Below, piece by piece: positions 9,001-48,078 of a DNA stretch of 64,000 bases. The notes beneath the pieces were generated by a model, which was not told the DNA's origin, did not search any database, and saw nothing but the letters and a program-made list of their open reading frames with translations. A program made the translations under genes and the position numbers. The stretch is from assembly GCA_028716965.1 (NCBI GenBank), contig JAQUOV010000003.1, positions 140,756-204,755 on the forward strand, read 5' to 3'. Source of the DNA: Candidatus Omnitrophota bacterium (GTDB lineage Bacteria > Omnitrophota > Gorgyraeia > Gygaellales > Profunditerraquicolaceae). Every line of letters starts with the position of its first letter. Within the stretch, counting starts at the first letter, position 1.

Positions 9001-12000
9001 TCACATAGTTGTCGGATTTTCTATTAGAGTAACTTATTGCTGCTTCTCTCCCCAGGCGCTTAGCGCGGTTAGGCCCGATATTATAGGCAGCAACCGCATA
9101 TTCAACATCATTGTCAAATCTTTTTAACATCTCTTTTAAATATTTCACTCCGCCTCTAATATTCTGAGCCGGATCCATACTATTTTTAACACCCATATCA
9201 TTGGCAGTGCCGGGCATAAGCTGTGTAAGACCTTCGGCGCCTTTTGGTGAAACTGCTTTCGGCTCGAAGTTTGACTCGCAGCGTATAACCGCCTGCACCA
9301 ATGGCAAAGGCACATTATGACACTTAGCCTCCCTTGCCATAATCTTATAGAATTTTCCTTTATGGAAATACTTAGGTTTACTGGGTATAATTTCATTTGT
9401 ATTATTTAATCCGATGGAAGGCGAAATCTTCTTTGTAGCTATAACTTTTTGGGTAGGACTTATTTTATCTAAAGCCTTTTGCGTCTCCTTCATCCAATGC
9501 CCCTTTATCATAAAACGTGCGCCTTCGGGCAAATTAGTATCTTTTAAAGCCTCATTAAATTTACCAAGGGCTTCCTGGAACATGTTTTTCCTAAAAGAAA
9601 CTACCCCGGCATTATAATGATCCTTACCTATAAAGCCTTTTGTTTGTGCTTTTGTCTCTGCGCCAGAGGCATGTTTTACAAAAGAAAGGCTATTACTGAT
9701 AAAATCAGCAACTTTTCCGGCTATATTGTTAATCTGTTTTACAAATGAAGGCGGGCCCTTGTTATGTTCAGGCGCTAATGCCAGTTGTTTGGCCATAGTA
9801 GATTGCTGGATTCCAATACCGCCTGTTAACCCGGGGTCAGAATAAGCATATTGCTGAGGAAAATCCCCTATAACTATCTGGTTACCGCCAAATCCATAGA
9901 TGCCGGCGCTATCTGCCGAGAAAGGAATTCCTGCGCCATGTGCCGGTGTAATAAACATTAAAACTCCTGCTATCGCAACCAACCCTAAGGCCGCAAACCC
10001 TAAATTAAGCATTCTCACATTAGGTAAGGGCAATGGCGGAACCATCTGGTCAAGTTTTCTTGACGCCCCCTGGTATGCTTGCATAGCCTCAACATACATA
10101 GCGTGTTCCTGTACATAGCTATCATAAATAGCCTCTCCGCGGTTATAGCGTTCTTTAATATCAAGCACTTTCTTGCCTGATATAATGAGTTTTATATAGG
10201 CCAAGGCCTTATCTTGAACTTCATTTGAATCCTTACCCAATGCTTCGATATCCAAAGTTAAGTTCTCAAGCAGTTCTTCTGCATCTACTTGTTTACCTTG
10301 TAATTCATTGTTCGCAATCCGGGCATAATAATCAACAACTATGTCTGCCAACATCCTCTGTTTTTCTTGTTCAACTGGGGATTTCTTGTTATTGGCTAAA
10401 TACGCCTTTAACCACTTGTAGTAAGTTTCAAATATATTATAGCCCATCCATTCCTCTGAAGAGATAGGCTCTAACTCTTCAATCTTATTTTCTAATTGAC
10501 TAACCCTTTGCCTTAAATAGGATATTTTGCGTTTTAATAAAGATAGCTCTTTAGTTAAAACTTGCATGAGCTCCTCTTTACTCTGGCAACCGTCTACCTC
10601 CATGCTTAACTCTCCTGCCTTTACTTCTCCGCAAACCCAATCTCGTAGATATCCAAACTTCTCCTCCTCTAAAGACTTGTTCACAATATCTAAAATACTC
10701 TTTAAAGACCTTGCTTCTTTATACAGAGAAACAATCCTCTCTTTTATTCTGGCAATCCTTGCCCTTAAAACAGACTCTTGGGCTAAATAGTTCTCTATCT
10801 TCTCCACTAACCCCTTAAAATTACGCTTAAAAGCCGACAACTCTCTCCTACCTTCTTTATTTATAACTAATTTTACAGGTTTTTGTATCCTGGCTTCCTT
10901 GAATTCTTTATTTGACTTAATCAAAAGGCGATTCAAGGTTATATGAGCGACGATATATAATCCGATAACTGCAGGTATAAGGCCAAACAGAATAATACTG
11001 CCTGTGATCGTTGCAATAATCGCTATTCTCTTTACCGTATCCATGGTTGAAGAATAAGTATTCACCATCGCTCCGGTATCAAGCGGGCTGGAGCAGCCTG
11101 CCAAATGATTTTTATCCTGCAACCTTGGCTCTGAAGATTCACCCTGCTGCACAGAATTCTCTATACGGTTATCAGCATGCGGATTGATTTTGTGCGCTCG
11201 CCCCATCACAATCAAGCCTGCCATCATATTAATAAACATTGTTACAAATGGTATGCCTAATACGGCTCCTGCCAACCCCACACAAAATACAATCATTGAG
11301 AATATCACCTTGGCTTCCTTGGATCCGGCATCAGCTACTTTACTTGCCATAGCGCCTAGAACAAAAGCCACCAATCCTACGAATACATGCGAAAGAGGCA
11401 CGCCCAGAATTATTGTCACAGCAATCGCTAATACGAAAGTATTCACCACCGCGCCGGTATCAATGGCGCTGGAAACAGAAGAGCCACGATTATTTATTGC
11501 TGGATTGCTTTTAGACAATAACAAATTGATGATCGGGGCCATATTTACGGCAAGCTTCATCGCCATCGGGTCCTGCCCACATACTACAGATAATAAATAC
11601 ACTATCGGTATTAAACTCTTGCCTCCCTGGGTAAACCAACCAAGCCCGGTAGGCACTCTCTCTGCAGGGCTGCCATCAGGATAATAGGCATAAGCCATGC
11701 TATTGTCATACTGGTTCCTATAGCTAAGCAGCTTCTCCAATAGATTATCGGCCTGCGTTTTATATAAAGGATTCTTCCTTGCTAAAGCATATTTTGCTGC
11801 TACCATATGCGTAAAGAATTCCGTAGAGATAAACTCCTTACGGTCGGCTAAGAAGTCATACCCGATGATCTCATCGCTCGCATTCCTTAAAGCAATCCTT
11901 GCATCGGCCATTTGTATAATCTCTTCAGCGGCATTCTCCTCAAACCTGTCCATTCCTTTAACTCCAAATGCCGAGATTGCCCATGCCTGCACATCAGTGG

Positions 12001-15000
12001 GTATACTTGTATCTATACCGTAACCTTCAACATAACCGGAGTAGAAAGCGTGTTGGTTATTATCATAAAGCTTCTTTAAGAATGCTTCGATTTTGTTCGC
12101 GGATTCAAGATATTTAGCATCCCTGGTCAGAGCATGCAGCCAGCTAAATAATAGGTAAGCGTCAATATTGTGTTCAGCGCAATAAATCTGCCAATATCCT
12201 AATGCATTTTCATCCCAATTGATCCTCTGATCTTTGGGATTGCCTGGTTCTCCATGCGGCCCCATTGGGACTGCGCCATAGGCAAAATGGTTTGTATCAT
12301 TATTCTGTAAAGAAATGGCCCAATCAGCTTTTTGGCGAGCTAAGGCTAAATTCTGCTGATCTCTTCTCTTGCTATAAAGCCGTAAAGCCGCAATACCCAA
12401 ATGCAGATTCGGGCCTGTATGCACAAACCATTCTACGCCGCTGGCATCCAAAGCTCTTGCTGCATTAATCTGTCCCCCTAGCCTGGATGGGATTTTTGCT
12501 GATGAGTCAAGGAGGTTTTGAGCGCCTATTGCATCCCCTGCTGCCAACAAGCCCTGCACGGCAATCCCCTGGTCATAAGTTATTGCCCACCCGTCAACAA
12601 CCGGATCCCCCAGGCTGCTGGCTATCAAACCTGTGGGGTATATCTGGCTTTTTGCCCAATTAAACAGCTTTTGTTTTGCATCCTCTTTGTTCAAGCTGGC
12701 AAATACCTTGGCTACTTTTGAATTGCTCAAAGCTAAAGCCATGCCGCCAAAGAATACCCTTCTTAAAAATTCCCTTCTATCTATAGGCGAAGAGGTGCGT
12801 GTATTGGAGATACCGGAGGAGCCACGATGAGAAACCTCTAAATATAAACGGTAAAGTTTAGGAGTGGCTAAAATAATTCCTGCCACCTTAAATTCCACTA
12901 TACGATAAACACGTTCTTTCTCTATACGCTCAGCATATCCTTTTGTTCCAAAGTGGCCCACTAAACCCTGGATCTTATTTTCAGCAGCCGCAGTTATACG
13001 TTCCTCGCTGACTCCAGGCTTAATCCCCAACAATTCAAACAAGTCTGTCTTAAGAAATTTCTTGAAATCTTTAAGTTTGATCTTTTGGAAAGCAGGAAGC
13101 TTACTGTTTATTCCGCGCCAAAGTAAATCAATTTTCTCGCCAGAGGTAAGAGTCTTTTGTTTAGCCTCTACACAAATAGTATTTATAAGTTCTTGGACCT
13201 TCTGGTTATCAATACGTTCTGCCCCACGCCCAACATAAGCCGGCCCTAAGTTTAAATCCTCAATAAAGTCTATTACTTCTAACTTATCAATATCAGTAAT
13301 TCTTTGTAATTCCTTGGTCAAATCAGTAACAAAATCATCATAATTCTTATATTCTCTAGCGATCACCTCAAAATATTCCGCTATAATGGAATATATATTC
13401 ATGACTTCCCATTTGGACCTTGAGCTAATGGGGCTGCTGGAGGAAACCACCGGCTCCTGCCATAATTCAAAGTCAAAACCGTAAAAAGCTTCTATGAGCA
13501 GCTTATTGTCTTCGCGCATCACGGTAAGGATATCTTTTTGCTTGCCGCTGATATACTTTCTTACCTGCCAGACATCTTCTCCTCCCTGATAAACACCCTC
13601 TCCGCTAACCTCAAAAGGATTACCCGAAATTAACATTACTTCATTGTTTTCTTTATCTCCCTTTATCACGAACCTGAACTGTCCATCAGGCAATTCCACA
13701 TCTACGATGTTCCCGCCTTGAATATATTTAATAAATTCTAAACCTGCATCAGGAACAGATAGGCCATAATCGCCTAAACGAATTTCATTTCTACGGACCG
13801 CCCAGTCACCAACCTGCTTGTTTTTCCAGTCCTGAAGATGCGTTTTACGCTCTTCGCTGCGCGCGCCGCTCCAGGCCAAAAGTACCTTCGTGCCGTTTAC
13901 ATCCTTATAAAATCTGTATATTATTATACGGTTACCCGGAATAACAACCTGCCTAAACGTGGACAGCTTCTTATCGCTATAATCTGAACCGGCTGTTTCA
14001 GGAGCGTCAACAATATTCTGAACGGCTCTCTTTAAATTATTATCTCTTCTTAAATCATTAACCGGGAATTGAGGAAGGGCATATACAGTCAAGTTGTTCA
14101 CAGGGCTTGAGCTTGTCTCTAATACCACAACCGCTCCAATTGGAGAACCTGCCCTTCTAACATCCAAACTATTTTTCTCTAAGATTAATAAAGAATTGCC
14201 GTTAACAGTATTCGTTTCTATATTGAAGCCGAGTTTCGCGATTGATTTTGGCTCCCTTTGACTTAAGCAATTCTCCGGCCAGAATATTTTGCTGACTAAG
14301 ACTCCACCATCCTTAAGAGCCCCATTGCTCATCTGTCTTAGCGCCCCCAGCAAAGTCGCCTTTTCATCTATTTCAGTAAATACACTCTTTCCTGTAGCAG
14401 TAATGTGCCCTAATTCAAATGCGCCGATAGAAATAATGGCGTCAAACCTTACGGGGTAAACCTTGAGGAAATCAAGCATATCGGCTTTAAATATAGGATA
14501 ACCGTCTTCGGCTAAGCGGGAATCTACGCCATAAACTATTGCCCCCAGTTTACGCAATGCATCCATCGAATCTGTTTTTACCCCAGGGCCTATTTCAAGT
14601 ATCCAGGCGCCTTCAAACTTCTTGCCTTGTTTTTCAAATATCCTTTTTAGCGCCTCTACTATAGGGTTGGCACAAGCAGCTTCCACTGTACCGCTATCAA
14701 GAGGACTACCGGAAGATGGTTTTTCTAACAGTTTTAGTAAAGCCCTACATTCATCCTTGAGTTTCTTGGAAGTATCCTCATTGCTAATTAACGCCTGAAG
14801 GTCAGGCACTATTTCTTCTAATGTTGTTTTGAATCTTAGGTATTTAGGTGAATTTTTACGTTGATGATCCTCAAGCTTTTTTCTGAGTTTCTGTAAAAGG
14901 TTAGATTTGTTTCCCACAAGAAAAGAGCTAAATAGTATATCGTGAAGCATTTTATCTTGAAACGTATACCCCATCTCGATAAATTCAACTATCGTTTTAA

Positions 15001-18000
15001 TGATTTGAGCTATAAACTCTTGCCTGCGCTTTTCCGCATCCTTCTCTTGGGCCTTCATCTTTCTGTCAGGGTTTATCCGTGCCTTTTTATCTTGAACAGG
15101 ACTGGAGACCTTACCTGCTTTCCTGCCTTCAGCGCTGATCTCTACTATATCAACCGGATTCTCAATAACCGCAGCTACGCCCCTGCCTCTTCCTGCTTGA
15201 GATTTCTCAGAATACCAGTTAAACCTCCGATTATTTTGCCACGCTACTCCAGATACAGGCTTTATCCGCTGGATGGGGCTGGAAGGCCTATGGCCATGAT
15301 AATTTATTGCCCTGTCAGTATTGTCAAAACTCCCTTTTGTCCCACTATTCTTATTTTGACTGTAAATACCAAGCTTATACGCCAATATGCCTCCAACAGC
15401 ATAGGCTAAAATATCGTATATATCAGTATTCACGCCATATATCTCAATGATTGTCAATATGGTAAACCCGGCAAGAGTCGCCCAGCGAGTAGCTTTTTTG
15501 TTCATAAATATTAAGTCAGCGGTGCCGTTAAAATCACACGGAAGGGCTCTTAAAATATCAGACACCCTTCCTGTGCCGGAAATCGTATTTGCAAATCCCT
15601 TCAATAATCTCAAGAAGAACAGGGTCATAAAAACAAGCAAGGGGACAGATAAGAAATCATTAATATGGTTGGTCAATACCCAGCCCCATGAGGAATGCTT
15701 TAAAGGTACGTAGAAAATCTTTGCGATCAGGAATGTTACGGCGGTAAATATCGAAGTGAAAGCTGCCGGTTTAAGATACCTGGAAACATTGCTAATGGAT
15801 TTATTCTTCAATCCTTCGTGAAGTTTAACCAGATAAAAAACAGACATTGAGAAGATTGCCGCAAACTCCAGTCCAAGCAAACCGGTCTTTGCTCCAAATA
15901 TGCCGCCTATAAGGGTCGTCCAGCCGGCGAAGTTGGCCAGGTCTAATCTCTTCCTCTCGGGGAAACCATGGCTTTGGTCAAATTTATCCAATAAGAAGTA
16001 CATCAACGGGTATAATACCCACGCCCACATAGCAATACTCAATGGCATAATGAATAACATCAATGTACGCATTATGCCATTAACCACCAAGCTTTGTGCC
16101 AAAGGCTCAACGTTGGCCGCCCAATAGGTAAATCCAAAACCTAATAATACTCCGGACAATAGGAAGAGGCGGATAGAGGTTTTCTGTAGCAGCTTTGCTC
16201 CTCCCAAAACCATAGCAATTGTAAACCTGCTTAAGAAAGACCTCTCTTTTGTTAAAGCCGAGGAGGCCTCAGATGAAACATTATTGAGGCCTCTGGCTTG
16301 TTCCGTTAATCCTGTAGACGGGAATGTTATTGCTGCGTGCAGCAGCAATGCAGCCAATGACAGCGCTGGTATTAGCGCCAGAGAGCTCTTCCCAGGAATC
16401 AGCGCGGCCATTGCGAGTATAGACATGGCCGTTAGCTTCATTAATAAGGAAGAGCCTGATATGCCCATCGCCATATTTTGCGGCTGCAAAAACCGTGTTG
16501 TCCTTCTTAAACTCGACGATGTGGTCAAACACCAATTCGTTAAATCTGATAGGGGACATGATGCACCTCCTTTTTCTTGTTGTATCGGGGGCAACAGGGG
16601 GATCATCGCCTGGAGGGGGCGCCCTGCGTCCCCCGATGACAACAAAACCACTATCTCACACCTGCCACGGTAGATGAGATTAGTGGTTGGTTTAAAATTT
16701 AAAATGTTTTCCGGAATGATTACGATATTTCTTGCCTGGGATTGTTTCTCTAAGGAAGGGACAAGAATACTTACGCCATCTTCATTAGGCGCATTAGCCT
16801 GCATAATGTTGCGCAGGATCAATAAGCTAAAGCTTATGATGAAACCTAAGGATATTAACCTTATCAGCTCATTACCATAAACATTGGCAACTAAACCCGT
16901 GGCAATAGATAAGAAGCCAGTGTTAATAAACTGATTTATTATGAACCCATAATCATTGCTTGTATGCCGCTCTGTCTGATCTCCTCTAGTCTTCTTAAAA
17001 GGTACTGAGTCTCTAAAGCCTTTAATTCCTCTATGAATTCCAGTATCTTCAATGTTTTGCTCTCTGTTAGGTTTACCATTTTCTCCTCCATTTTTAATTA
17101 CTTCTTCGTTCAAGGTTGATCCGAACCCGTTGTTGAAACTAATAGGAGGAGCCTGTGAATTAACTTCGCCGATAATTCTTTCTTCCGGATGGACTTTAAT
17201 TTGCTCACGCGCCCTGGAATAAATATGATATTTGTCAAGGAATCTTATTAACGCGTTTAAGAATGAAGCGGCCGGCTTGTTAACAGGAGAACTGGTGGCT
17301 ATTACAATTCCTACCGGCATGCTGCTTGCTGATGCAGGCACTTCACTAATTGGAGAGGAAGGAGCTGTTTGGGGATTTACTTGGTCCCTGATGTCTTCCG
17401 GAACCTGGTTAATGTATTCCGGAATCGCATGGAGAACATCTTTGAATATATTAATCGCTCCTTCTTTATCACCTTTATTATATTTAATCATGCCAATCCC
17501 AAACTTATCTTCATTAAACTGAGTAAGCTTGCTATTCCTCTCTTCGAACATTAAGCTTTCATATACTTCCCATACCTTAATGGCCTTATTATCTTTCCCC
17601 TGTTTAACATAAACTTTATAAAGGATAAGGTATGCCTCAGCGTAATCAGAACTTAGATTAGTGGCTTCTCTTACGGCCTTGACTGCCTCATCATATTCCC
17701 CTGATTCTAAGTGTTTTTTGGCTATCACAACATAATCCTCTGCCGTAAGTTGTTTCTCCGCCCCTGCTTCAGCCTCAACTGGCGCCTGCGGCACAACAGG
17801 CTGCTCTTCTAATTTTACAATAAAGTCATTCTGTCCTGCAATGGCAGATAAAGGATAAAAAACTTCATTGCCATTCACATTCAGAACTACTGAAAGGACA
17901 ACCTCGCTATCATTGTACACGCAATCTTCCACATCCAACACCACGCCTGTTACTGTTTCCTTACCAAGTATAAATCTTACTTCCTTCCCTCTAAGCTGCG

Positions 18001-21000
18001 TAAACTCTAAGTAGAATACCCTTTCCTTAATTGCCCCTCTTGCTGCCTTGGGAGCGCATTCCATAGCATCCTCAAAATTAACGCTAGCCTCTTCGTATTC
18101 ACCAAGAGCCCACAAAGCTTCTCCGTTTTCACGGAATATATGATAGGTATCCTTCTTAAAAAAGTTCAATTTCCTTATATACCTACTAAGCCTTATCGCT
18201 GCATAGAATGCTCCGGTTGCTTCCTTATAATTGCCATTACGCAGATATGCTGTTCCTAAGCGATATAAAGCTAACCTGCTATTGGGGTTCAATACAGTTA
18301 TCTTGCTATAAAGGGCTATGGCCTGCTCAACTTTTGTCTTCCTCTCCTCGTCGTTATCCGCCTTCTGCTCTTCTTCTTCGGTTTTACCCGCTATCCTCCA
18401 AGCTGCACCTTCCAAAGCCTTCCTTACTTTATCGAAAGCTCTTCTATCTAAATAACCGCCTAAGGAGAACGCGTTCAAAAATGTATATGGCCTGAGTTCT
18501 TTCCTTAGCGCTTCTATATCTGCTTCCGCTGCTCTCAACTCATCTAATGTCTTCGCCTCTTTTAAGCTGTTGATAACCCCATAGGCTTTTTGCCTGAAAG
18601 TTAGCGGTTTAGGCACCTCTGGAGATTTTTCCTCTGCCGCTTCTTCTGCAGGAGCCTTCAAATCGCCTTTATCCTCCTCTGTTTCTGCCTTTGTTTTCCT
18701 TGCTTTAATAATCCTGATTACTCCAAGAATACCTAACCCAATAACCGCCCCTGTAATTACAATAAGGCTGATTGTGACGGCTGTCTCGGAGAATCCGGTT
18801 AACTGGCTTATATAACGAATATTCTTAGTGGCCCAGGATACCTTCTGACCATCAGGAGATTTTACCTGTTCAGATTGCTTGATTTCCTTTTTGCTATCGG
18901 TTGGTTTCTTGGGTTGCTCTGCTTCTTTCTTCTCTATTTTAGGTACGGGTTTTTGCTCAACCGGCTTAGTTTTTTCTTCTGGCGCAGTCAGTTTTTGCTT
19001 ACCTGCATAAATCTTCTGTTGAGGATATATGAGGTCGGGATCCTTTATATTATTATCACTGGCCAGCTTTCCTACGCCTTCGGGATATAGGGCTTTGTAG
19101 TCGTATATGCCTAATGCCTTGGCATCAACTGCAATGCCGCTAAGCGTATTCTCGGCAGGCCTATCCGACCTCCAGTTCTTCGTGGCCACTACATAGTGCC
19201 CCTCTTCATTATGGAATTTATGCCCATATTTCGGCCCGACAAGGGAATCTTTATTTAACGGCCCTTGCTTTGCTGCTTCTTTGGCTGAATCTTTAGCAGG
19301 AAACTTTGCTTTTATTTCTTTAGGTGCGGGTAACTCTTTGGGTTGCTGCTTAAAGGCTGATTTATTGCTATCTGCATTCTTATCAGTTGCCGGATTTGGT
19401 TTAGTCTTATTACCGGCAGGCATGCCGACAGCTTTATATTTCTTGCCATCTGCTTTAAAATCCCAATGCAGCGCTTCAGGAGAAGGACGGCTATCACGAG
19501 CTTCTTTGCTTATCTTATCTAATTTACCTGTGGTATCTTGTTTAAAACTGGATTCTCCTACGTTCATCCCCCCATCTACCGCTGCTATTGCGGGGTTTAC
19601 GCCATAAGCAATAGCCGCTACTGAAACCCCTATTAATGCCGTAAGCACGGGATGGCGCCTAAACCAGCCAAATATACCTGAACCTTCACTTATTTCAATC
19701 TCTGAATTTACTCTATCTAAATATAACTCAGGGAATGCTTTTTCGTGGGCGTCTTCAAAACCTGTGGCTTCAACCGCTATTTCTTTTCCAGAAGGATCCT
19801 CAAGAATCCAAGTTTCGGTAGCTTTTGAATACTCTATGCTGCTTTCAGGCGGACCACGGCGATAATGTGCTTCCGTGTTTTGAATACCAAAATTAATCTC
19901 TCTACCCGCATCAATGGATACTGCTCTATCGGAATTCAATCCTGTGTTATTATATATAACTCCCAGAGGGCTTGACCCTCCGCAATTGCCGCCGTCTCCG
20001 GCGCCTGTTGCCCCGGTTGCGCCGCCGCCCTGTGAACCGCCGCCGGTTGAACCTGCGCCTGCTCCACCTTGCGCGCCACCGGTTGATCCGCCGCCTTGGG
20101 CCCCACCGCCAAGCTGACCAACCTCCATTCCCTCCATCTCTTCTTCACTTAGCTCAACTTCTGTATCAAAATACTTGTCCTTAATCACTTTTTCTGTAAC
20201 TATAGTTACTCTCCCCGATGCGTCAGTTATCTCTGAAATATGAACCTTAAGTAATCTCCTTTCACCATTATCGTTATCAGAATAGCCATACACATAATCT
20301 CCCTCAATTCTTTCAAATCTAAAGAGATGCCAAATCCCTCCTTTAGTTTTATATACGATAAATACCTTGTTAGAGATCAACTCGGCACGGTCCCTTAATG
20401 TGTCCGCGCTAATCCTGAATGCAGTCAAAATGACCCCTGTTACCTCTTTGACCACTTTTATAAAGTCGCTTAACCTCACCAGATAAGAACCGCTAAACTT
20501 TTTAAGCCATATTCTGAAATGATCGTTTACTTTTTCTTTTTGACCCTCATCTTCTAAAATAGTACCCACTGCACAGTTACCTATAGCCTTAAATTCACGA
20601 ACCAATTGCTTCATTGCTTCAATGCGATACGCCTCTCTCTCGGTATAGCTAATTGAATCCCAGTCCTCTCCGGCATCCCGGGACAACTGCCTACCTCTTT
20701 CTTCAATCATCTCCTTTGTAATATAATCGCCGCCTCTGGTAACAAACCATTGTAAGTGTTCAACTTTCCTGGCTTCTTGTCCTAACCTTGTCTTTAGTTC
20801 TCCTACTTCTCCTTTTAGTTCTCCTACTTCTCCTTTTAGTTCTCCTACTTCTCCTTTTAGTTCTCCTACTTCTCCTTTTAGTTCTCCTACTTCTCCTTTT
20901 AGTTCTCCTAATGTTTCACCTTGTTCTTCTATGGCTTCACCTTGCTCTTTTATGGCTTCTTTTATTTCTCCTATTGCCTGGCGTTGCGCCTCTACCTCTT

Positions 21001-24000
21001 CAACCAATTTTGTCATTGCTTCCTTTACGCCTTCTAACTCACCCCTTCTAATACTATCTATTAAGCTTTCTACTAATTTTCTCCTTTCACTCTCTTCTTC
21101 CTTTATTTCTTTAAAGGCGCTCTTCAGCTCCGACTGCACTTTTAAAAACAAGGTCAAAGCATCCAGCCCTCTCTTAATCTTATCTTCTATAATATCGTCA
21201 CTCATTGCCTCTAAGAATCCGTTAATCATATTATCTGCGGCAAATTCTTTCAGGAAATTCTCACTAAGAGCAATATTGTCTCTGCTTGTATCTAATTCTC
21301 TAAGGCCTCTCGTTGTTATCCCCAAAAGTACAAAAGCCCTCGCGGCAAAACCATCGGCATGTATCCAGGCATCATCTTCCAAGAATTCGCTTTCTTTCAA
21401 TAATCTATATGCTCCTTTATGATATTCCTTCAGCTCAAAGTCAGACTTTTCCCTCTTACGGTATAATTGCTGAGCTACTAAGCGCCACAAATTATTCCAT
21501 ATTCTTGGTAAATCATCTGCAGAAATTGGTGAGGATGAATTGACGGGGATCCCAGACACAAAACGTCCGCCATCTGTTTTTTCAAGCGGTTTTAAGGCAA
21601 CACTCATAGAACCACTGGTTTCTGTAGTTTCTTGACCAACAGCAGTCTCAATAGCCCTTATGGTCGCTACTACATCACCTAAATCTCTTCCGGCTTCTTC
21701 AAGCCTTGTACCTATATTACTGGACGCACCTGCTGCACCCTGCCCTTCTTCTCCATTTCTGGAGGTTGCACTCTGGGCACCTGCATTTAATACATTTCTT
21801 GATTCTATTACTACTAATGAACCTAATTTGCCTCTCGTATTTAGAGCATCAAACTCTGAGAGAGAGCTCGATGTGTAAGCAGTAGGCGGGCCGTGGGCAG
21901 AAATTGGACCAGCCACTATAGGAATTTGTGACGTTATATCACCTAATTTGATCTCTCTTGAACCAAGTACTGGCATAATTGCCAAATTTCCATGTATAAC
22001 TGCCTGTTGTATTCCTAAATTGCCAACTATAGAGCCAACAATAATCGGGTTAACCCCGCTTATAGGCGTTACAGGCGGAGCCATAGGCCCAGGCACGGGC
22101 AGGCTTTCGGTATCATTAACCGGTGAGCTAGACTGGACAGGCCCTATATTCTTCTCCCATAGGCCTTTCAGGAATTTACCAAATTCACTCTTCTCAATTT
22201 GTCTTAGGGAAACATTATCACTCCAAATGATCTTTGCCGTTGCCGGCCAATCATTTCCCTGCGACTTCAAGTATCTAAGCTGATCAGTATACGCTTCCTT
22301 TTCCAAAGGATCCGCAAAATAGCCTTGTAGATTATCCGGAGAAAGGGTTGAAACAATGAACCTGCCCTCTTTCCATTGTTTATAATGCCTTAAAACATGC
22401 ACAATAAACGAGCGATTAGAAGCATTATCCATGCGAAGCATATCTTCAGTGAACAATATGGCATAGCCTGTGCCTCCGAAGATCTTTTTCAGTATCTTCG
22501 CGGTCCAATCAGTAAGATATGCGCTGTCTAATCCGTTCTTCGCCGCCTCTTTCCCTATTATATTGGTATTATGGCTTTGTTTAGGAGGGACAGCGAATGA
22601 CTCAACAAGCTCAAAATCGCCCTCTCCCTTTCCAAGTAAATAAGCCCCTAAACCTTGCATCAACTCCAGCGGGAGCACTGCGATATTTACTTTATTTAAT
22701 TCTGAAACGGTAATACCCAGGTTGGTTTCAATGAATTTAACGAGAGCGGGATCATTACGCAGCTTTTCCTGTAAATTTACTTCTTTTATTTGAGTAAGCA
22801 GTTCATTAAGCGCCTTTTTCAAAGCAGCGCTTTCCGAAGAAGAAACTCCTGCTAAAATAGTATTCGGGAATAAAGCAATCCCCAGTGCAAAGAGGCCTAT
22901 TGTCTTAAGGAACTCTCTGCGAGGTAATTTGCGTTTGAGCGCGTCTATTATCTTATTCAGCGCCAGAACGCTTTGCGGAGGGCTTCTTTCGGCCTGCTCT
23001 CTGAGCATAGGCGAACTTACCGGCTTTGCCTCCTGCGGCTTAATCTTTTCCGGCTGCCTCATAGATTTAGGCAATTCAGTTTTTCCACCAACCCCATTAC
23101 CATACCCTGCGTCCTTACCTATATAAGCGCCACCCTGACCTTGGCCAATGCCTCCTTTGCCACTAATTAAATTAGGATTCAAATACAGCCTCTGGAGGTC
23201 CCTAATCTCACCCATAGTTGAAACTACCACATCGGTTCGGCCGGAATCTTTAATAATCTTGGCCACAGTATCCAAATATCCCTCTGTCGTTGCGACAATC
23301 ATCGGAGATATCTTTTCAACACCTACTTCACCGCGTATATCGCCCTTAATATATCTTTCTTGCTTAGGAATACTGCCTTCTCCTAAAATGACAATAGGTA
23401 TTTGTGCACGCTTCTCAATCTTAGCAAGCTCAACCCTGCCTTCTTCGGTTAACTGCAATTGATTAAATCTCTCTTTTAACTGCGTAAGATTCTTCAGGCG
23501 GCCCTCAATTGCTCTTATCGTTTGAGCCAATATTGATGTTTCTGTATAATCTTCTGCTTTAAGCCTCTTCAAAGCATCTTGCATTTTATGCATTGTTCCA
23601 TCTATATTAGAAGGAGTTATAGCATTCCCAACAGATTTATCCGCATAGTTGATGGCATTGCCGACGTATCCTTCATTCTCGCCTGTCAGGTAATTTAACC
23701 CAAAGCGGTTTAATCCTATTGAAGAAATAAGATCTTGGTTAAGCCCTGTTTCGCCTCCATTTTCGCCACTCAAAGGAATAATGCCTAATTCCGCAAGTGC
23801 CTTTCCAGGTAATACTCCAACATTTAAGATACTCTCCAGGCCTGCTCCATTAGTCCCATGGGCAACATAAGTTACGTTTTTATCTTCAGCCATAGAAGCT
23901 GCTGTTCTTTGAAGATCCAACTTCTGAATATTAGACGAGCTTACCTTTTTTATTTCTGTGCCCGGGATTAATGCCTTAATCGCATTCGCCACCACTTCAA

Positions 24001-27000
24001 GCTGTTTCTGTTCGTTAAATTGTGCCATCGCCGAACTGGCGGACGCTGGGCTACTACCTGTAAGCTTTTTGGCTAATTCACCAATCAACTCATTTGCTGC
24101 TACATTTTGACCTTTACCTATATATTCAGCTACCCTATTAATAACTCTGGGATTAATCGCTAAGTCGCCATTATTTCTTGCTATATCTTCAACAGCTTTA
24201 GTTAAAATTATCTGGCCTACGTCTTTAAAAGCTTCCTGAGGCAATCTTTCTAATAAACCTTGCAATTGATCAAGCTCTTCTTGACTGTTAGCTTGTTGCA
24301 CTGCGATCTTAAACCCATTTACTCGCACCATTGTAGGTGGCAACGGATATTCTTGTTCTTGAGGCTGAAGGCGTTCGTGTACTATATTTATTGCTGACTG
24401 TATCTCTGGCTTCTTTTCATCCGGCGCATATTCAAGCGACTTCTCAAGGGCGGCTAAAGCAGAAATGTGGTCTCCTGCATCATAATAACCACAACCAAGA
24501 TTGTAATATGTAATATATGTAGACCTCCCTATACGATTGGCTTCTTCTATTACCCCTATCGCCTTTCTATATGCTTGTATACTTCCTTCTTCATCCCCAT
24601 CCTGCAGTCTTGCAAAACCGAGTTGGTGCCAAGCTAACTCGTTCTCTGGCTGCAGATTTACGACATTCAAATAAATATTCCTGGCAGCTTTATAATCTTT
24701 CTTGGTTATTGCAGCCTTACCTTTGGAAATAAGCTTCTCAACTTGCCTTTGCTGCAGGCTCATTGTTACTTTATCGCGAAGACGCCCTAAAAAGCCTTTA
24801 TTGGCTTTTTCTTTTAACATTCCTTGAGCTATTTCGACTACCGCTTCCTCTTCAGAGCTAGCTTGCGGCCTCTCCACTCCTATTGCCACTTCTGCTTCAG
24901 GACCGGCTTGAGGCTTATCCGCTTCTATTACCACTTCAGCTTCAGGGCCGGCTTGCAGCTGGATATCTTCGTTCACGGTTGGCTGACCTGCCGCTGCTAA
25001 ATACACATTCTGTAACTGCTCGGGATCGATATCTTCTGCTAGCGTTCTAAAATCAAGAAAGCTCTTGCGCGCGAACGGAGTCATAGAACCAAGATTGTCT
25101 TTTGCCACAACTGAATCTATTACGTCTTCGTTATCGGCATTACCGATTTTTAAACGCTCTATGCCTGCGAGATAACCAAAATAATCGCAGAAGGTATGTG
25201 TAATTTCGTGGAAAAGCGTAGTCCCCTTTACGTCTTCTCTCCACTGATGCGGTTCCAGCAGCACACCGTTAGTAGCCGGGTCAAAGAACAGCTTCAGATT
25301 CATCCTTATCAACCAGTTAGGTTTAACATCGCCTCTTCCAAAATCATCGCTCCTGCCGTTAATTTCCACTTTTTCCTGGTCTTCATAAGGAAGCACTTCT
25401 ATCTTTACCCTATCTGCCATCTTCGGGTCCAAGGTGCTATAGAAATCTCTCAAGGTAACGGAGTCTTTATCCTTTAAAACTTCCAATCTCGCGACAGCTT
25501 CCCAGCTTCTCGCCAACTGTTCTTGCTTTGCCTTGCGGTCATCGGCTTTCCTCATTCCCTTGGCTATCTGCTCTTCTTCCTTTAAGATTTCTTTAAGTCT
25601 TATTATCAAAACAGGAACAATCTTTTTGACATAATTACCGCCTATCGAGCCGAAATATATCTCTTTTTCCAGTTTATTTTTTAACTCTCCTGACGCATTA
25701 AAAAGCTCTTGCGGATAATCAATCAATCCCTGCATATACCTCTGCATCATCTCCGCCCTAAAATGCGGCGCATACCAATCATCCATTTTACCCTGGAGGC
25801 CGACATGATAATTTAACCATTCATATGTCTTTAGCGTCCTTATAGCCACCTGATGCTTTTCTCTTAAAGACGGGTCGGCTTCTAAAATATTCCTTAATGC
25901 CTGCATCGACAGGCCAAAATCGAAGTTCTCTTCATTGTAATCCACTCCTAAGATGTCAAACAGCCCTGTCAAATTGCCCTTAGATTTGTTGACCAGCCCG
26001 GCCATTACCTTGTAGCTTCTGAAATACCTATCTCTTAGCGTATTTGCCAGGATGTACCTTTCTACCCCTTTGTAACCGCTGATATCGGCAACGTTATTCA
26101 GGAAAACCCCATACCTTTCCTGGTTTTTCTCCAATTCCTTATCGCTTTCCAAAGCTGCCTGCGCATCCGCCAGATATTTTTTGATGGACTTCGCCTTTTC
26201 CTTATCCAAACCCGCCAAGAAACGGTATCTAAGCTTTAATTGATCAGCTTCTTCTTCAACATTGGTCTGGAGGTATTTCGTCAAAATAATCTCCAGTTCT
26301 GTTGAGGATAACGCCTTCAGGCTGGACTGGCTAAACGATGAATAATATATAGGTAAGATTACCTCTTTTTCAAAGTTTGTCTGGTCGCGGCTATCTTTAA
26401 GCGTGACCTCTTCAAAATAATCTCTGATCTTGCGGTCTTCGCGCAGGACTTTCGAAAATAATAATCCGTAAGCGGCGGAATAATAAGGTAAAGCGAAATG
26501 CGCTTCCTCTTCGGCAATGTTAAATTTACCGAAAGCTTCCAATGACTGCGACAGGAGGCTGCGTATATTACGGCTGGTGGAAAGCTTGTATTTATCGAGT
26601 TCCAGGGAATTCTTATTGTTAATCAAATCCGTAATCATGGCGGAGAAATTATTCACAGCATGGGTGATCTGCGCTGCCCGGCTTTCCGGCAATAGATTTT
26701 CTTTGGTAATGACCGATTTAAAGGTATCAATGGCATACACATATTTTTCGGGGCTGCTTAGGTAATCCAGGACATATTCCGGTTGAGATAAGAATATGCT
26801 GACTACACCCTGGCCTCCTCTAGGGTCATTCATAGCCTGGTTCAAGGCGCTTTGCGCTTCTGGAGAAAGCGTATTATAGACGCCTACGGCATTTTCTATT
26901 GTAGAAAAATTATAATTGGGGTTGATTAATGAAACCAGGGCGTCCGCAACAGTATATCTGCTGACTGGAGCGCCATCAAGGAAAGGAATGCTGAGGAATG

Positions 27001-30000
27001 CTTCTGCGTCTTCTTGAGGATTTATTATTTCATTTATAGTAGTGAGCAAACCGTGGTAATCGTAGACGATTGTTTCAAAATCAATGTTGCCGGTAAATTG
27101 CTCTATAATGTTTCTTAAGCCGAGCGAATGGTGTTCTGCGGTGGTTACTGAATTAGGTAGGTATTTCAATACAGCATTAACAAGATGCTGCCTTGCCTCA
27201 GGCGCGCCCCTTGAGCCATTAGGAATGTTTCTTAAATATTCTATTTTACCTAATATTTCCTGTCTGGTTTTCAAAGGCAATCTTGCAGCTTGTCCCCCCT
27301 GCGCATTGCCGGCTGTATTGGCTATGGCGTGCTCTATCAATTGAAGTAAGGGCATATGGACATTAGCGCTAGAGTTCTTAATTTCTTCGGTATAGATATT
27401 ACGCAGAAAATCCAGCCTCTTGGCTACCTGCGCTACTCCCATCAGACTAACTGCATGTTGTAATGACCAGCCATAATTGGCGTCTATGGCATCATAGCTG
27501 GCATCAGCCTTTACCTTAGCTGCTTCTCCCAGAATATGCTGAGCATATCCTTTAAGAAAAGAGGACATCTGTGGGTCATCGATTATCTCTCTCATTGTGG
27601 TTTCTATCTTGGAGGCTGACTGCCTTAAAGCTTCTTTTACCCTTACCTCGGGTGACTGTCCGATATCAGCCAACTCCAGATGATAATTTTCTTTATATTC
27701 TATGGCTTTCTTAAGCAAGTCCTCTATCTTTGCGACTTGCTCTGAGGTCTTGGCCTGTTGAAGCATATTTTTTAACTGCTCTATCAGCCCGCGGGAAATA
27801 GCCGCTTCCCCAATCTGGAACACTAAGGCATCGGAGATATCCAAGCCGTCTTTCATGAGCGCACTGCGCTCCAATTCTCGGGCGTTGGCATTAGTCAGCT
27901 TAAATGCTTCCATACGCTGATTCAATTCAGTCTTTGTAAGGCCAAAGACATTCTGTTCCGTCAACTTGCTCTTATCATACAATACTATTCTTTCACCTTC
28001 AGTCACGCCGCTTCTTCTGTTCCTGTTTATCGCCTGCACCAGGTCGGAATGTCCCCAATTATGCGCATCATATACGATAACGTCAAATTCGCCTTTATAA
28101 TCAATGCCGGTTGCCGCCCTTTCGTTAGAGATAACTATCCAGTCTTTATTCTGGCCGATGCAATTTTGAATCTTATCATTAATTTCGCCGGCTGAGGTGC
28201 TTTCATTAATAGGGATAATTTCTTTGCCTTTGAGTCGAGGCTCATCCGTTATCCTAGCTTTTAAAGCATTCATGGCTTCGCGGTCTTTTATGAAAATCAG
28301 CGTTGCCCGGTCCTTTATTAAGGTAGGCATGATCTCAGCATAAGCTGTTTCGCCGGACTTAGGCTCAACTCTCGCCGTCTCTAATCCTTTTGTATCTCCG
28401 GCATTAACAAAGCCTTTGCCTAAGTTAAAAAGAAGCATTGTCTCAACCGCATTCAAGGTACCTGAAGCGCCTAAGACATCCGCACCCTCTTTAAATCTTA
28501 AGACTTCCGATAAAGTAGCCTGGGAAGAAGAAGCAGAAGTCTTCAAATTACTCCTAATTGCCTCCATATCCAGGCCTGAATAGCCTAATTTCTTTTGTAC
28601 TTCAGGATCCGATAGCCTGGTAAAAGCCGCAGCCAGGAAATACCTGTCGCTGAATATCTTGCTTACTTCGGCATTGCCTTTTTCCCGCGGGACAATTTGA
28701 TCTTTTATATCTTTTTCGCCTGCAACTGTCCACCTGTTTGTGTTCCTTGCCTCAAAGAACCCGCCGATTTCATGCGTACTTAATCCTTCCTGCTTTAAAA
28801 GATCTATTGCTGCGCGCGTCAACCCCCATTTCCCATCACTATCCTGATAAAATAAAGATTTTGTTTCGTGATTGTCTCTGGCATATTCTAATGCATCTTT
28901 TGCGCTTGTTTTATCATCCTTTTCCCACGCCTCAGATGCTGGTTCTAATTCACCCTTATTCATAAGCTCCGTAATCTTTTTGTAAGCCTTTTCAGCGCCT
29001 ATGATAAACTCGGTCTGCAATTTAATTGGATTTCCTGCGGAAAGTATATAGGTTATTTTATCAGAGAAGGGAATATGGAACTCGTCAAACCTGACGAAGT
29101 CCTGGTTGATAATCCTGTCTATCAATGTCGACTCCTGGTTCCTGTTGCGCAGATGCCCAAACTGCTCCATGCTGAATACCGTAATCGTATTGCCTTCACC
29201 TAACTTGTTCTCTAACCCACCATTGTTTGCGTTAGATAGGGATAGGTCATCACCGTTTGCCAGTTCCACCCCGAACATTTTTAAGAATTCCACCATATTA
29301 GCGCTGCCTTTATTGCCATTTACAGTAGACTCCAATTCTACTCCATCTTTTACAACTAAAGTCTGATTAGGTATGTTACCCATCTTCCTTCCATACAAAT
29401 AATTAACCAACATTTCCACCAGGTAGGCATCGCTCTTGCCGCCTCCGGCAGTAAGATGAACGTTAAATCCTTCCTTTAAACCGAGGATCATCTTTAGCTG
29501 ACCGGTTACTGTTTCTTCTTTATACGCTTTAGATGGATCTTTCGCCGCCTTTTCTATATTGTATTTAGCAAAAGCAATATAAGTAGCAAATACCAAAGGC
29601 ATGATTTCTTCTTTTGTTATCTTTACGCTATTTTTATCTTCGCCTTTAGCAATGAACCGGCCGATGAATTCTTCCAACCTGGAAACATCGGCATTCTTTC
29701 CTAATAAATTCTCCTGTTTTAACTGCTTAAGATAAGCATTCAAGTTATCAACGAAATCATTAATTTCCTTTTGCTTCTCCTTAGCTATCGGTTTAGTTAA
29801 TTTGCTTTCATTGAATTCTGCCATTACATCCCCGCTATCTTTGCCAACTTTCATACTTAATACACCTGATTCAAAGTAACCCCTATATCCCTCACCCTCA
29901 CCTTTGATCATACGCTCAGCATAGCGGCTTCCAATCTGAGGAGAGAGACGCGCCAGTACAGGGATCAAAAGATCAACCTTCTCCCCCTTAATGTTTAATG

Positions 30001-33000
30001 TGATCACCCTGTTTTCTTTCTTTCCCCCTATAACTTTCTCAATTTCTGCTCTTCTATCATTTACAAATGTGGCGAGGTCATCGAATTTCTCCCCTGATTG
30101 CCTAAGCTCATTCTTAAAGTCTTGCAACTTTCCTTCCATTGCTTCAATTTGTTCCTTAATCAGCTTTTTCCTGCTGCTGTCAATTTCTTTAGATAGATTT
30201 TCATTTAACAATTTTATATCCTTAAATAAACCATTAATCCTGTTTAATTTGGCGGATTCACCAGCTACTTTCAGAAGAGAATGTTCCTCTAAAGCCGCCT
30301 CTAATTTTTTTACGGATAATTTCTCCAATTTCTCCAGGTGGCTTGCCGACAGCATATCCAGAATGTCCTCTACACGCTCTATAGGCTTGGAGGCGCCGTT
30401 TCTTTCTACGTAATCTAACAGATGCCGATCTTTAAATGATTCTAACGCATCTTTCTCTCCCTCAGAAAGCTCCACGCCAAACCGCCGGTTATAAGCTTCA
30501 ATAAGCTCATCGGTTTTCCCTTCTCTTATCCCTTGTAAAGCGGCTTTCTTCAGGAAATCTTTTTCTTCTTTTCTTAACTCACCAAGTTTTTCATAAGGCT
30601 TCCCTTCAAGATAGGCCTTTTGCCAAGCCTCGTTTGCCTTCCAATAATCCTTGTTATAATCTTTTACGCCTTCACGGCTGGCATTCTCCCTGGCTGTCTT
30701 TATTCCCTCAACCAACAGCATCAAGTGCTCGACTCTTTGATCGCGTAATTTTTCATTGGGTATTACGCCTTTTAAATTATCTTGGAACTGCCCTTTGATT
30801 GTCTTCAGGTGCTCTTGTTTCTGTTCAGTAGTAGCGGTAACCGAAACATCAAGATTTACTCCATTCAGCAGCCTTCCCTCTGAACGCTCTTTATCAGCAA
30901 CTATTCTTGATGCTTCAGTAAGAAACCTGCTGTTAACAGGCAGTTCTAATTTTACCGTTTCCTTGCCAAAGGCAAATTCGATCTGACGACTCTTCCCCAT
31001 AACATCCTCTAATGACTTATCGCTGTCTTTCATTAATCCTTCGGCTGAGCTACCGGACATAAGCAGTCTCTGAAGCTCAATACCTCTTTCTACGCCCTCC
31101 CTTACCCTGCTTAAGTCATTATATGTTTCTTTAGACAAGACTTGAAAATCACCTAAGGTATCCTTACCAAGGATTTCCCGCGCATTGTCTGTAGCAGGAT
31201 TAAAATCCGGCTTGAGTTCCTGGGCCGCTATTCCTAATGCCTGATCAATGACTTTCCCTACTTCCGCGATGTTAGCCTGGCTGTTTTCTGATTTACCATA
31301 AATTCCTTCTGCTTCGGAAATTTTATCCAAGAACTTCTGCGCGGCATCGAATCTTTCCAGATAAGTCTGCTTTAACATGGAAGTAGTGCTTTCAGGGCGA
31401 ACACCTTCCGAGGCGATTTTCGCGTGCTCTGCGCTAAAACCAAAAACATTCTGCAATACATTTTCTGTCAGGCCCCTATTGGTCTGTTCAAAAGAGGTAT
31501 AAATATAGCCCTGTTTTACCGCTTCCGCAAAACTGCCGGCTTCCCTAGTTGCGTTCATCCAACTATGGAAATTGTCTTTTTCCTTGCACAACTGCGCTCC
31601 CAGCCGCTCACCTAAGGAAGCCTCGTAAGTCGGCACCATAAAGAAAGGAAGCCAGTTGGCGTAAGATTTGACGCCTTCTGATATATAACCTGCGCGCTGA
31701 TAATTGACAATTTCTCCGTGATCATTATAAACCGGATTAGTCTTTGATTCAAAACCAACCCAATCACCGACTTTTTTATCTACAATATCAACCACAGCGC
31801 TAACGCCGGTCACAAACCCGGGCATCCAGAGTACCGAAGAATCCACCCAGCGCCCGGCCGCCATCAGGGTATTCGACAGGTTTATCTGTCCCAGCCTGAT
31901 ACCGTCGGCAAATTCAACTCTATCTTTCGCAAAAACTGACCTTACGATATTAACAGCCCTTTCCACTAAGCCTCCGGAGGTATAAATAGGGCTGGTAGCC
32001 CAGGACTCAAGCGAAGGCTTGGCCTGGAACAGCTCGATCATCGGCTTCATCCACATACCTGACTTCGGGCCTTCTATTGCCGAAAACGCAAGATCACCGG
32101 CTATCATGGTCTTAAAATTAATGTTCCCATTCTCAGCATACCCTGTTTTCATCAGCCAGGTACCAGGATTAAAAACTGAGAAATTATTGATCATGCCCTG
32201 CATTGCAGGAGAAACCTCTCCATTATAAAGACCAAAATACTTTGCTTTTACGCCTTCCCAAAAAGCTCCGCCAAACGTAAATGCCGGCGATACTACTGTC
32301 CACTCAGCCGCTCCTGCCAAGGCGCGGTAAAATAACAGGTTAGGGCCGCTGAAAGTCCCCAATTCCAATCCGAATAAGGTTCTCACGGGTTGCGCCGCTG
32401 TTGCTTCTGTGGCTACCCCTGAGTATCCTTTTAAAACATTGCCTATCTGGCTACCCTGCATACCTAAATATATTCCAGTTGCTCCACCCATAAGACCATA
32501 ACCTAAGGTGTCAGAGAAAACTCTCTTACCCCAATTATCGCTCATCGCATAATTAAATGCCTTTGGATCTCTAATTCCAGCCAAATAATAATTAACGCCA
32601 TCCTGCGCAATATTTACGCCTGTTCCTGCAAAGACGCCAGTAATTCCGCCATATACAAATCTGCCAAGCATTGCTGAATCGCCATAACGCGTCAATATTC
32701 CCCTACCTACTCCTTGAGCAAAATTAGGTATGAGAGCACCTTTTGGCGTAAGATTGCCGACAGGCGTGCTAAAACCCCATCCCAAAGCAGCACCAATGAT
32801 TCCACCTCGCACATAATTCCAGGGATTAGAATATGCGTCAGCAACGCTTTTCCCGCCCAGAAGCACTGCTGCCAGCGGAAAAGCCGACATCCCTGCGCCT
32901 GTATAGGTGGCCATAGAACGGCCTAGTCCCTGCATTCCAAATCCTGTTAGCCCGCCGCCTAAAATTGATAATCCATATGAAGACAGTTTTGCCGCATCCA

Positions 33001-42519: not shown

Positions 42520-42554
42520 TTATTTCTCTCCTATACGCATAACCCTAAGAACTT

Positions 42555-44682: not shown

Positions 44683-44691
44683 TTAACCTCC

Positions 44692-46074: not shown

Positions 46075-46076
46075 AA

Positions 46077-46349
46077 CTACTCTCCTCTTAAAACCTTATC
46101 TTCCGTCAGCTCCTCCGGTTTATGAACCGGCCACTGCAGGGTATAAGTATCAGAGGATGTCCCCGCGATTACCCTGCCGGCATTATAACTCTGCTGGCGC
46201 TGCACAATCTGCTTATTTGCCCAGAACCATATCTGCATTATCGCAGCAAACAAGAGCACTATCCCGGCAAAAACAAATGCTATTTCAATCATGCTTTGCG
46301 CAATTTCATCGCGCTTTAACTTTTTTAACCCTAAAACGGAGTAACCCAT
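46077..46349 (-). CDS. TadE-like pseudopilin
   Basis: RDEIAQSMIEIAFVFAGIVLLF matches the TadE_N consensus. Confidence 0.6.
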   Translation of the reverse strand: MGYSVLGLKKLKRDEIAQSMIEIAFVFAGIVLLFAAIMQIWFWANKQIVQRQQSYNAGRVIAGTSSDTYTLQWPVHKPEELTEDKVLRGE

Positions 46350-47540: not shown

Positions 47541-47541
47541 C

Positions 47542-47886: not shown

Positions 47887-47896
47887 TTTCGCCCCT

Positions 47897-48061: not shown

Positions 48062-48078
48062 TCCCTTACTCCCCTTCT

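Follow-up and report, generated by a model that had tools for sequence, protein, structure and literature searches.

How proteins of 10,000-150,000 residues sit in or across the membrane, as one chain or in pieces, is an open question. For the giant proteins of Omnitrophota, cleavage by C39 or S8 peptidases has been proposed, no cleavage points are known and topology predictions conflict (10.1101/2023.11.21.568195). Twin-arginine motifs, module-initial signal cassettes and defined cleavage points are found neither in the main text of that paper nor in that of a second paper on giants (10.64898/2026.06.07.730766), and one of the two suppressed internal signal-peptide calls on later chunks of four split giants, as chunking artefacts. 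Internal signals of the twin-arginine translocation (Tat) type have been described in dual Sec/Tat proteins such as the actinobacterial Rieske protein Sco2149, Sco3746, polyferredoxins and YkuE-like proteins (PMC3471235, PMC5449189). The present study concerns a 64,000-nucleotide stretch of DNA from a Candidatus Omnitrophota bacterium (hereafter the window; assembly GCA_028716965.1, contig JAQUOV010000003.1, positions 140,756 to 204,755), in which a giant open reading frame (ORF) carries, about 6,000 amino acids (aa) from its start, a twin-arginine sequence followed by a hydrophobic stretch. We designate this element cassette 1, and we put the chances at roughly even (a probability of about 0.5) that the whole statement holds, namely that cassette 1 is a Tat-type signal for export or membrane topology which runs in-to-out, stands at the start of a module and is kept by selection.

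A frame scan of the window gave one stop-free frame on the minus strand spanning 2 to 40801, with the ATG nearest its 5' end at 40798. Since the frame is open at the left edge of the window, the product has at least 13,600 residues; its C-terminal end lies outside the window, and all whole-protein counts given here cover 13,600 residues only. Coordinates refer to the window, and all features of the giant ORF are on the minus strand. The preliminary description of this DNA had placed a near-consensus Tat motif 6 kaa (thousand amino acids) into the ORF, and both the motif and its depth were confirmed: the reverse complement of 22844-22960 encodes LNKIIDALKRKLPRREFLKTIGLFALGIALFPNTILAGVSSSES, in which RREFLK occupies aa 5961-5966 of the single stop-free frame (22904-22921) and the hydrophobic stretch aa 5967-5986 (22844-22903). 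The n-region (aa 5948-5966, LNKIIDALKRKLPRREFLK, 22904..22960) contains six Lys/Arg residues and ends in KRKLPRREFLK, the h-region (aa 5967-5978, TIGLFALGIALF, 22868..22903) has 12 residues including two Gly, and the c-region, read by eye, is PNTILAG (aa 5979-5985, 22847..22867), with a putative cleavage point before V5986. As judged from this residue pattern, the element is a full n-h-c signal-peptide cassette and not a plain transmembrane (TM) helix. The TM helix of the preliminary description thus holds as a hydrophobic stretch, but the hydrophobic core is only about 12 residues long before a Pro-Asn break, which points to the h- and c-regions of a signal peptide rather than to a standard 20-residue TM helix, and what had been called an AxS-like site is better read as a putative cut between ILAG and V. 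The neighbouring secretin's own N-terminal signal has a similar c-region, GPILAG before DA, so that ILAG would be a plausible signal-peptidase context in this host.

Lower hydrophobicity and a higher content of Gly, Ser and Thr are an established difference of Tat signals from Sec signals. The best 11-residue Kyte-Doolittle mean of cassette 1 was 2.62, at the upper end of the range of the RR-preceded signals (1.94-2.62, a small sample), while the Lys-type signals found at the giant's N-terminus and on ordinary secreted proteins encoded in the window, likewise a small sample, ranged from 2.63 to 3.53; the h-regions of the RR cassettes were richer in Gly/Ser/Thr and less hydrophobic than the K-type signals of the window. 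An approximate Hessa sum, good for ranking only, was +2.4 for aa 5968-5986 as against -1.75 to +1.5 for the strong TM segments of the giant.

To the extent that alignments can define it, cassette 1 is the exact N-terminal edge of a module of about 700 aa in a mosaic giant, and three independent comparisons agree on this. The first is with L002, a contig carrying the only close relative of the region. Homology to L002 begins at aa 5948, residue 1 of the n-region, and the Gly-rich linkers upstream of it are unrelated in the two proteins: before column 42 of the alignment the linker of the giant (aa 5880-5947, GKGGIGQGQGG...GNGVGG...VSSPM..., 22961..23164) forms only a loosely aligned gapped stretch opposite a different Gly-rich linker in L002, and it could be aligned with neither L002 nor L003, a contig that carries another relative. 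From aa 5948 to aa 6642 identity to L002 was 49% by BLAST and 51% in a MAFFT alignment, and the module led by cassette 1 (aa 5986-6642, 20876..22846) is about 50% identical to L002 aa 3334-4013. The second comparison is with proteins that share the upstream module (aa 5594-5879, 23165..24022), which is 78% identical to L003 aa 1707-1989 and 43% identical to P0004 and P0005; homology to all three ends at aa 5875-5879. Behind this module L003 has 185 residues devoid of any hydrophobic segment; in P0004 and P0005 the module is followed by ASSPA and a TM segment flanked by Lys, behind which stands an HExxH peptidase or an SLT-like domain. The third comparison uses P0111/L005, a distant short homologue (L005 281-649, 28% identity) of the domain directly behind cassette 1. 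Its frame, bounded by stops, has about 170 codons and stands directly before a tRNA-Arg gene on a 776-bp contig; the in-frame stop upstream corresponds to aa ~5993 of the giant, and no signal is present. HELTH is intact in this homologue, as opposed to the degenerate zincin-like motif HVLRH of the giant (aa 6135-6139, 22385-22399), which is also found in L002; P0111/L005 also has PLEKEA downstream of HELTH.

Cassette 1 is strongly conserved in L002, where it is likewise embedded inside the ORF. The strings ALKR.LPRREFL and FPNTILAG are invariant, and the n-region codons differ at five synonymous positions (R, L, R, E and L); with an invariant peptide behind differing synonymous codons, cassette 1 is under purifying selection. 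BLAST comparisons showed the giants to be mosaics, with single modules common to relatives in differing orders. Further relatives of the region were scarce. Word-indexed homologue searches with aa 5901-6600 and aa 9327-9800 gave no matches, and searching with a profile of three sequences (aa 5948-6225) yielded P0111 alone. Exhaustive HMMER searching with aa 5761-6960 gave 356 matches, mostly coiled-coil matches to aa 6580-6690; the true relatives among them were few, were mosaic fragments and in no case spanned cassette 1. A metagenome scan led back to the L002 contig. Many giant ORFs are evidently missing from the protein libraries, and the L002 protein was returned by no protein search. Searches of the PDB with the sequences of both modules and of the C39 region gave nothing usable, and Pfam at E <= 1 yielded nothing on the modules beyond coiled-coil noise and one LysM match below the threshold, with no cofactor domain detected.

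RR.FLK is expected 0.007 times in the giant from its composition. The pattern RR.F[LI][KR] was found twice, at aa 5961 and aa 9342, and behind each match comes a hydrophobic run free of charged residues. Over 2000 block shuffles the mean count was 0.025, and a count of two was never reached. The matches to the consensus are P-RREFLK (aa 5960-5966) and D-RREFLR (aa 9341-9347), the preceding residue being neither Ser nor Thr in either, and the uncharged runs behind them are 23 and 13 residues long, respectively, the h-regions of Tat signals having about 12-20. RR lay within 14 residues upstream of three of the giant's 40 hydrophobic uncharged runs, although it has only 23 RR dipeptides, as compared with one of the 40 runs for KK, which occurs 59 times. 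The second cassette of Tat type (cassette 2; aa 9337-9368, SSPIDRREFLRRVFFGGMALALSNSKVAKVFA before S, 12698..12793) has RREFLRR at aa 9342 and the same n-h-c layout; its candidate c-region cut, read by eye, falls between KVAKVFA and S and its c-region holds two Lys residues, whereas that of cassette 1, at ILAG before V, has no basic residue. Its counterpart in L002, EGRRQVIRILFLGALGLTLSNTIVVEA, is weakly alignable (E 0.008 in a small search), with RR kept and QVI replacing EFL. Cassette 2 heads a helical module of about 410 aa with no Pfam or PDB match, behind which lie the TM helices of aa 9783-9946; AlphaFold2 run on aa 9371-9800 with no alignment gave an unusable model, with a mean confidence score (pLDDT) of 35.5.

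A looser RR signal-like cassette was read from the sequence at aa 7047-7076 (FRRHPVLTALIGVSVAAIAYGVNPAIA before AV, that is, FRRHPV...NPAIA before A; 19574..19663), followed by a weak LysM match (19010-19078, E 0.013, 15.9 bits, below the Pfam cutoff of 20.9). The layout here, a cassette followed by the weak LysM match and a basic-tailed TM helix, is common to L002 and P0002, where the n-regions are of the Lys/Arg type. Among the relatives, internal RR cassettes were present twice in L002 and once in P0002, a 3,754-aa fragment of a related giant, SSSPATTRRQFIKISLAIAAAIGFGFPSVVKSE, which carries TTRRQFIK and has Lys in its c-region. Cassettes also stand at other module starts, at aa 9342 of this ORF, at L002 aa 7132 and at P0002 aa 2770, TTRRQFIKISLAIAAAIGFGFPSVVKSE. 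Self-BLAST detected no repeats within the giant, and the modules that carry the two RREFL cassettes are therefore not duplicates of one another. A positional homology of the P0002 RR cassette to LRRTTRFLQ at aa 8099 of the giant was ruled out by alignment.

Overall, we regard it as very probable that cassette 1 derives from a signal peptide and stands on a module edge. The preliminary description had offered a second-module export signal as one of three explanations of the motif, beside a relic of gene fusion and a membrane re-entry point, and the comparisons with L002, with L003, P0004 and P0005, and with L005 favour this explanation, as far as alignments can. In the mechanism that we propose, the internal cassette would act as an in-to-out topogenic or export signal: its charged n-region would remain in the cytoplasm, the h-region would go into the membrane in an N-in/C-out orientation, and the module behind it would be delivered to the periplasmic side, after which the cassette would be kept as an anchor or cut after ILAG. 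The flank charges suggest this orientation, the N-flank of cassette 1 having six Lys/Arg (net +4) and the C-flank, SSSESAALKKALNEL, two Lys and two Glu (net 0). We think it likely that the cassette functions in membrane insertion or export, and its own insertion in the stated orientation is held to be probable to the same degree; that it actually uses Tat is a more doubtful proposition. A near-perfect Tat consensus is kept at aa 5961, at aa 9342 and in relatives, while the ordinary secreted proteins of the window use Lys-rich signals, from which we infer that a TatC-type receptor recognizes the cassette, or that the cassette was under selection for such recognition until not long ago. No tat genes were found within the window, which is only part of the host's genome, or within the loci of the relatives that were covered.

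The topology of the whole protein was read from hydropathy and flank charges. The further TM blocks named in the preliminary description were reproduced by hydropathy: a strong TM helix at aa 7344-7362 (18716..18772), predicted to run out-to-in from its C-flank RIIKARKTK with five Lys/Arg, a multi-TM block at aa 8117-8404 (15590..16453) and a TM region at aa 9783-9946 (10964-11455). To these we add an N-terminal segment at aa 33-54 and a strong in-to-out segment at aa 10267-10285 (9947-10003). The many membrane crossings that had been postulated agree with these scans as well as with published descriptions of giants. Before cassette 1 there are one strong N-terminal segment and weak Gly/Ala-rich segments, a cluster at aa 2281-2654 and one at aa 2989-3007 (window ~31780-33960), in the otherwise TM-free first 6,000 residues; the side of the membrane on which the 3,000 residues before cassette 1 lie depends on whether any of the weak segments of aa 2281-3007 spans the membrane. 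The hydropathy scan gave no hydrophobic segment in aa 5987-7047.

Several points speak against a Tat-type signal at this place. Cassette 1 lies about 6,000 residues deep, with about 7,600 residues and some 15 or more hydrophobic segments behind it, and in all dual Sec/Tat proteins characterised so far no further helix follows the Tat-dependent one (PMC5449189). At the position before RR, where the consensus has Ser or Thr, there is Pro. Conservation of cassette 1 was seen in one close homologue, L002. Lys-type anchors bridge the same upstream module to exported domains in P0004 and P0005, and RR is thus not obligatory at this junction. We found no mention of Tat in Omnitrophota in the literature. 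Finally, the cassettes at aa 5961 and aa 7047 would both run in-to-out with no TM segment between them, which makes simple alternation impossible for one uncut chain; this conflict speaks more than anything else for models with independent export of the modules.

One such model, which we consider unlikely though as strong as any other competitor, is that the giant is a precursor cut in its Gly-rich or SSP linkers by its own C39-like protease or by another one, whereby the RR cassettes would become N-terminal Tat signals and the modules would be exported separately and folded, some of them tail-anchored by the next TM helix. Two successive in-to-out cassettes with no TM between them, as at aa 5961 and aa 7047, are what independent export predicts. 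The layout of cassette, weak LysM match and basic-tailed TM helix resembles that of known Tat tail-anchored substrates, which we count in favour of such a precursor. Gly-rich, Gly-Gly-containing linkers lie 50-100 aa upstream of both these cassettes, at aa 5880-5947 and at aa ~6895-6945 (~19960-20110), and known members of the C39 peptidase family cut after Gly-Gly. A C39 domain is present in the giant, and cleavage of giants by C39 or S8 enzymes has been proposed by the giant-gene paper's authors. The cassettes at aa 5961 and aa 9342 and that of P0002 each have an SSP site 2-30 aa upstream. In opposition to this model, both the cleavage and the Tat system that it calls for are putative; the C39 domain is behind an N-terminal signal-like segment and may thus be on the wrong side of the membrane; there is no SSP before the cassettes of L002; and the first piece to leave the cell interior would have a length of some 1,060 aa. 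The broader version, in which the giants are bacterial polyproteins whose every module has its own embedded Tat- or Sec-type cassette and is exported singly after splitting at Gly-rich or SSP[IV] linkers or at c-regions, we consider somewhat less likely again. If the giant is such a polyprotein, its RR cassettes would be the first landmarks of processing and export to be identified in giants, and it would be the first polypeptide with more than one internal Tat signal.

The SSP motif was also examined in its own right. Between aa 5929 and aa 9904 of the giant (window ~11090-23020) SSP[IVL] occurs 11 times, against 0.48 expected, often as SSSP[IV] followed by N, S, D or Q; it is also present in L002, P0002, P0004, P0005, P0008 and P0112. 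Nearly all SSP sites of the giant are in its second half. They are found at module junctions, and P0004 and P0005 differ by an insert that has ASSPA on both sides. A DNA-level cause was ruled out since the codons vary, which makes SSP a motif of the peptide. It is a candidate linker, processing or modification site.

As improbable as the cut precursor, in our estimate, is that cassette 1 is an ordinary internal signal-anchor inserted co-translationally through SecYEG and YidC, its Arg residues serving the positive-inside rule only and having no present Tat function. The flank charges fit the N-in/C-out orientation under this reading too, Lys-flanked anchors occupy the same junction in P0004 and P0005, giants have been described with many TM helices and Sec-related domains (10.1101/2023.11.21.568195), and there would be no need for Tat. 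Charge alone leaves the kept E-F-L-K/R of cassettes 1 and 2 and the Q-F-I-K of P0002 unexplained, however, and the same is true of the preference for RR over KK before hydrophobic runs and of the low hydrophobicity relative to the Sec signals of the window; the topology conflict with the aa 7047 cassette arises here as well. If the cassettes were plain Sec start-transfer elements, they would be an ordinary feature of a polytopic giant protein.

The preliminary description had also suggested a relic of gene fusion. According to this explanation, a gene that was once independent, and whose product was exported by Tat, became part of the giant by fusion, and its signal is now an inert linker or buried helix. 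The position of the cassette exactly on a module edge, the mosaic nature of the giants with their shuffled modules and the loss of the catalytic Glu of the zincin-like motif (HVLRH versus HELTH), a hint of decay, would fit with it. At an overall identity of about 50%, however, the cassette is among the best-conserved stretches, its peptide has been kept through synonymous changes and the same cassette type recurs at unrelated module starts, all of which weakens the relic; moreover, the sole short homologue of the downstream domain lacks a signal, so that the cassette did not arrive with that domain. We consider an inert relic quite improbable. Independent genes beginning at the cassette, which had been proposed as a check, were not found among the homologues, and in the sole close relative the cassette is embedded; where it had been allowed that homologues might lack the motif, L002 keeps RREFL. 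Taken together, the interpretation given in the preliminary description is partly supported.

The nearest Met codons upstream of the cassette are at aa 5932 and aa 5914, 29 and 47 residues before it, respectively. GGAGG lies 20 nucleotides (nt) from the ATG of aa 5932, as compared with about 5-9 nt between AGGAG or GGAGG and the start codon in the real genes of the window. Promoter-like sites were no commoner than in shuffled sequence, no ATG is near cassette 2, L002 has no Met in the equivalent stretch and, on the plus strand, two 65-aa ORFs lie beside cassette 1 with nothing on it. An internal gene start, by which the downstream 7,600 aa would also be made separately with the cassette as their N-terminal Tat signal, was accordingly rejected as exceedingly improbable: Met codons are available and Tat n-regions can be long, but there is no properly spaced Shine-Dalgarno sequence with a start codon, no promoter signal in excess of chance, no ATG at cassette 2 and no Met in L002.

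The remainder of the giant and its surroundings are of a known kind. Pfam found Peptidase_C39, TPR, SLT and PG_binding_1 domains in the ORF (2..40798). Its N-terminus has the Lys/Arg-type signal or anchor at aa 33-54 (WIRVVAFIVIAVFLPEQVAQA before V, 40640..40705), found in a hydropathy scan, just behind which comes the Peptidase C39-like domain (aa 183-267, 40001..40255; PF03412, E 1.3e-08, 35.2 bits, cutoff 22). The SLT lytic transglycosylase domain (aa 10491-10586, 9044..9331; PF01464, E 1.4e-26) lies downstream of the last strong in-to-out segment of the giant, that of aa 10267-10285, an orientation that would put SLT and PG_binding on the outer side, where these domains have to work. Immediately 5' of the giant gene, at 41446..59529 on the minus strand, Pfam matches outline a complete pilus locus like those of Tad and type II secretion systems (T2SS), with genes for a Rotamase_2 peptidyl-prolyl isomerase, RcpC, a secretin fused to TonB_C, a ParA-T2SSE fusion ATPase, two T2SSF proteins and a TadE/G-like (Tad) protein. 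Several small ORFs of the locus have signal or TM segments and no Pfam match. Such a locus is a typical neighbour of Omnitrophota giant genes, and that of the window fits the published description (10.1101/2023.11.21.568195). On the grounds of architecture and neighbourhood, the ORF is judged to be a real Omnitrophota-type giant gene; that it is real is further indicated by the relatives, L002 being an uninterrupted ORF stretch of 21.5 kb and L003 one of 6.5 kb. Both come from genome contigs labelled "MAG: Candidatus Omnitrophota bacterium". Farther along, at 60287-63930 on the plus strand, a divergent regulatory trio consists of a FIST-domain sensor, a histidine kinase and a response regulator with GGDEF; through this trio, cyclic-di-GMP signalling may be coupled to the locus of the pilus and the giant gene. 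PilZ genes near giants have been noted in published work on giant genes.

Cassette 1 can be compared with four known systems. With Tat signal peptides (S/T-R-R-x-F-L-K) it and cassette 2 share the RREFLK or RREFLRR core, a short, moderately hydrophobic and Gly-containing h-region and a c-region that begins with Pro or Asn and, at its candidate cleavage site, shows small residues at -3/-1, that of cassette 2 also containing Lys, a possible counterpart of the basic "Sec-avoidance" residue often seen in Tat c-regions; in contrast to them, the cassettes stand at aa 5961 and aa 9342 of at least 13,600 residues rather than at the N-terminus, and Pro or Asp precedes RR. With the dual Sec/Tat proteins the cassettes share an internal RR directly before a segment of low hydrophobicity, a predicted N-in/C-out orientation and a domain behind it that would be extracytoplasmic. 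In those proteins, however, a C-terminal cofactor domain stands behind the Tat-dependent segment, which is the final one of 3-5 TMs, whereas the motif of the giant is deep, repeated and followed by many TMs. An even number of Sec-dependent TM segments precedes the motif in that class, and positive charges come just behind the Tat-dependent segment; in the giant, the one strong and several weak segments before cassette 1 and its C-flank of net charge 0 are what compare with these two features. Since the cassette is not N-terminal, is not a final TM segment and does not precede a cofactor domain, it would at most work like the Tat and dual Sec/Tat systems and is not a member of either.

In flavivirus-type polyproteins, internal n-h-c signals between modules re-initiate translocation and are cut by signal peptidase. 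These systems differ from the present one in that they are eukaryotic, operate at the endoplasmic reticulum through Sec61 and are not of Tat type, and we know of no established bacterial equivalent of such viral internal signals.

The fourth comparison is with the Omnitrophota giants already described (10.1101/2023.11.21.568195; 10.64898/2026.06.07.730766), which have in common with this protein a length of more than 10 kaa, an N-terminal signal followed by C39, many TMs and a neighbouring Tad/T2SS locus, and also the cell-wall domains SLT and PG_binding, to which a weak LysM match may be added; the relatives of this protein also lie in Omnitrophota metagenome-assembled genomes (MAGs). It differs from them in that Pfam gave no SecA_DEAD match at E <= 0.01 within its 13,600 aa in the window, beyond which the C-terminal remainder extends, whereas a divergent SecA_DEAD domain has been reported in "most" Omnitrophota giants (10.1101/2023.11.21.568195). 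Cassettes on module edges would serve as landmarks in such proteins, predicting which segments are exported, where a signal peptidase or another protease could cut and that a Tat system is retained. Tat-type signals that recur inside a chain, thousands of residues from its start, would carry the class of internal Tat signals, so far a small one, well beyond proteins of 3-5 TMs. Internal signals of Tat type are already known; it is their placement in a giant mosaic protein that is new.

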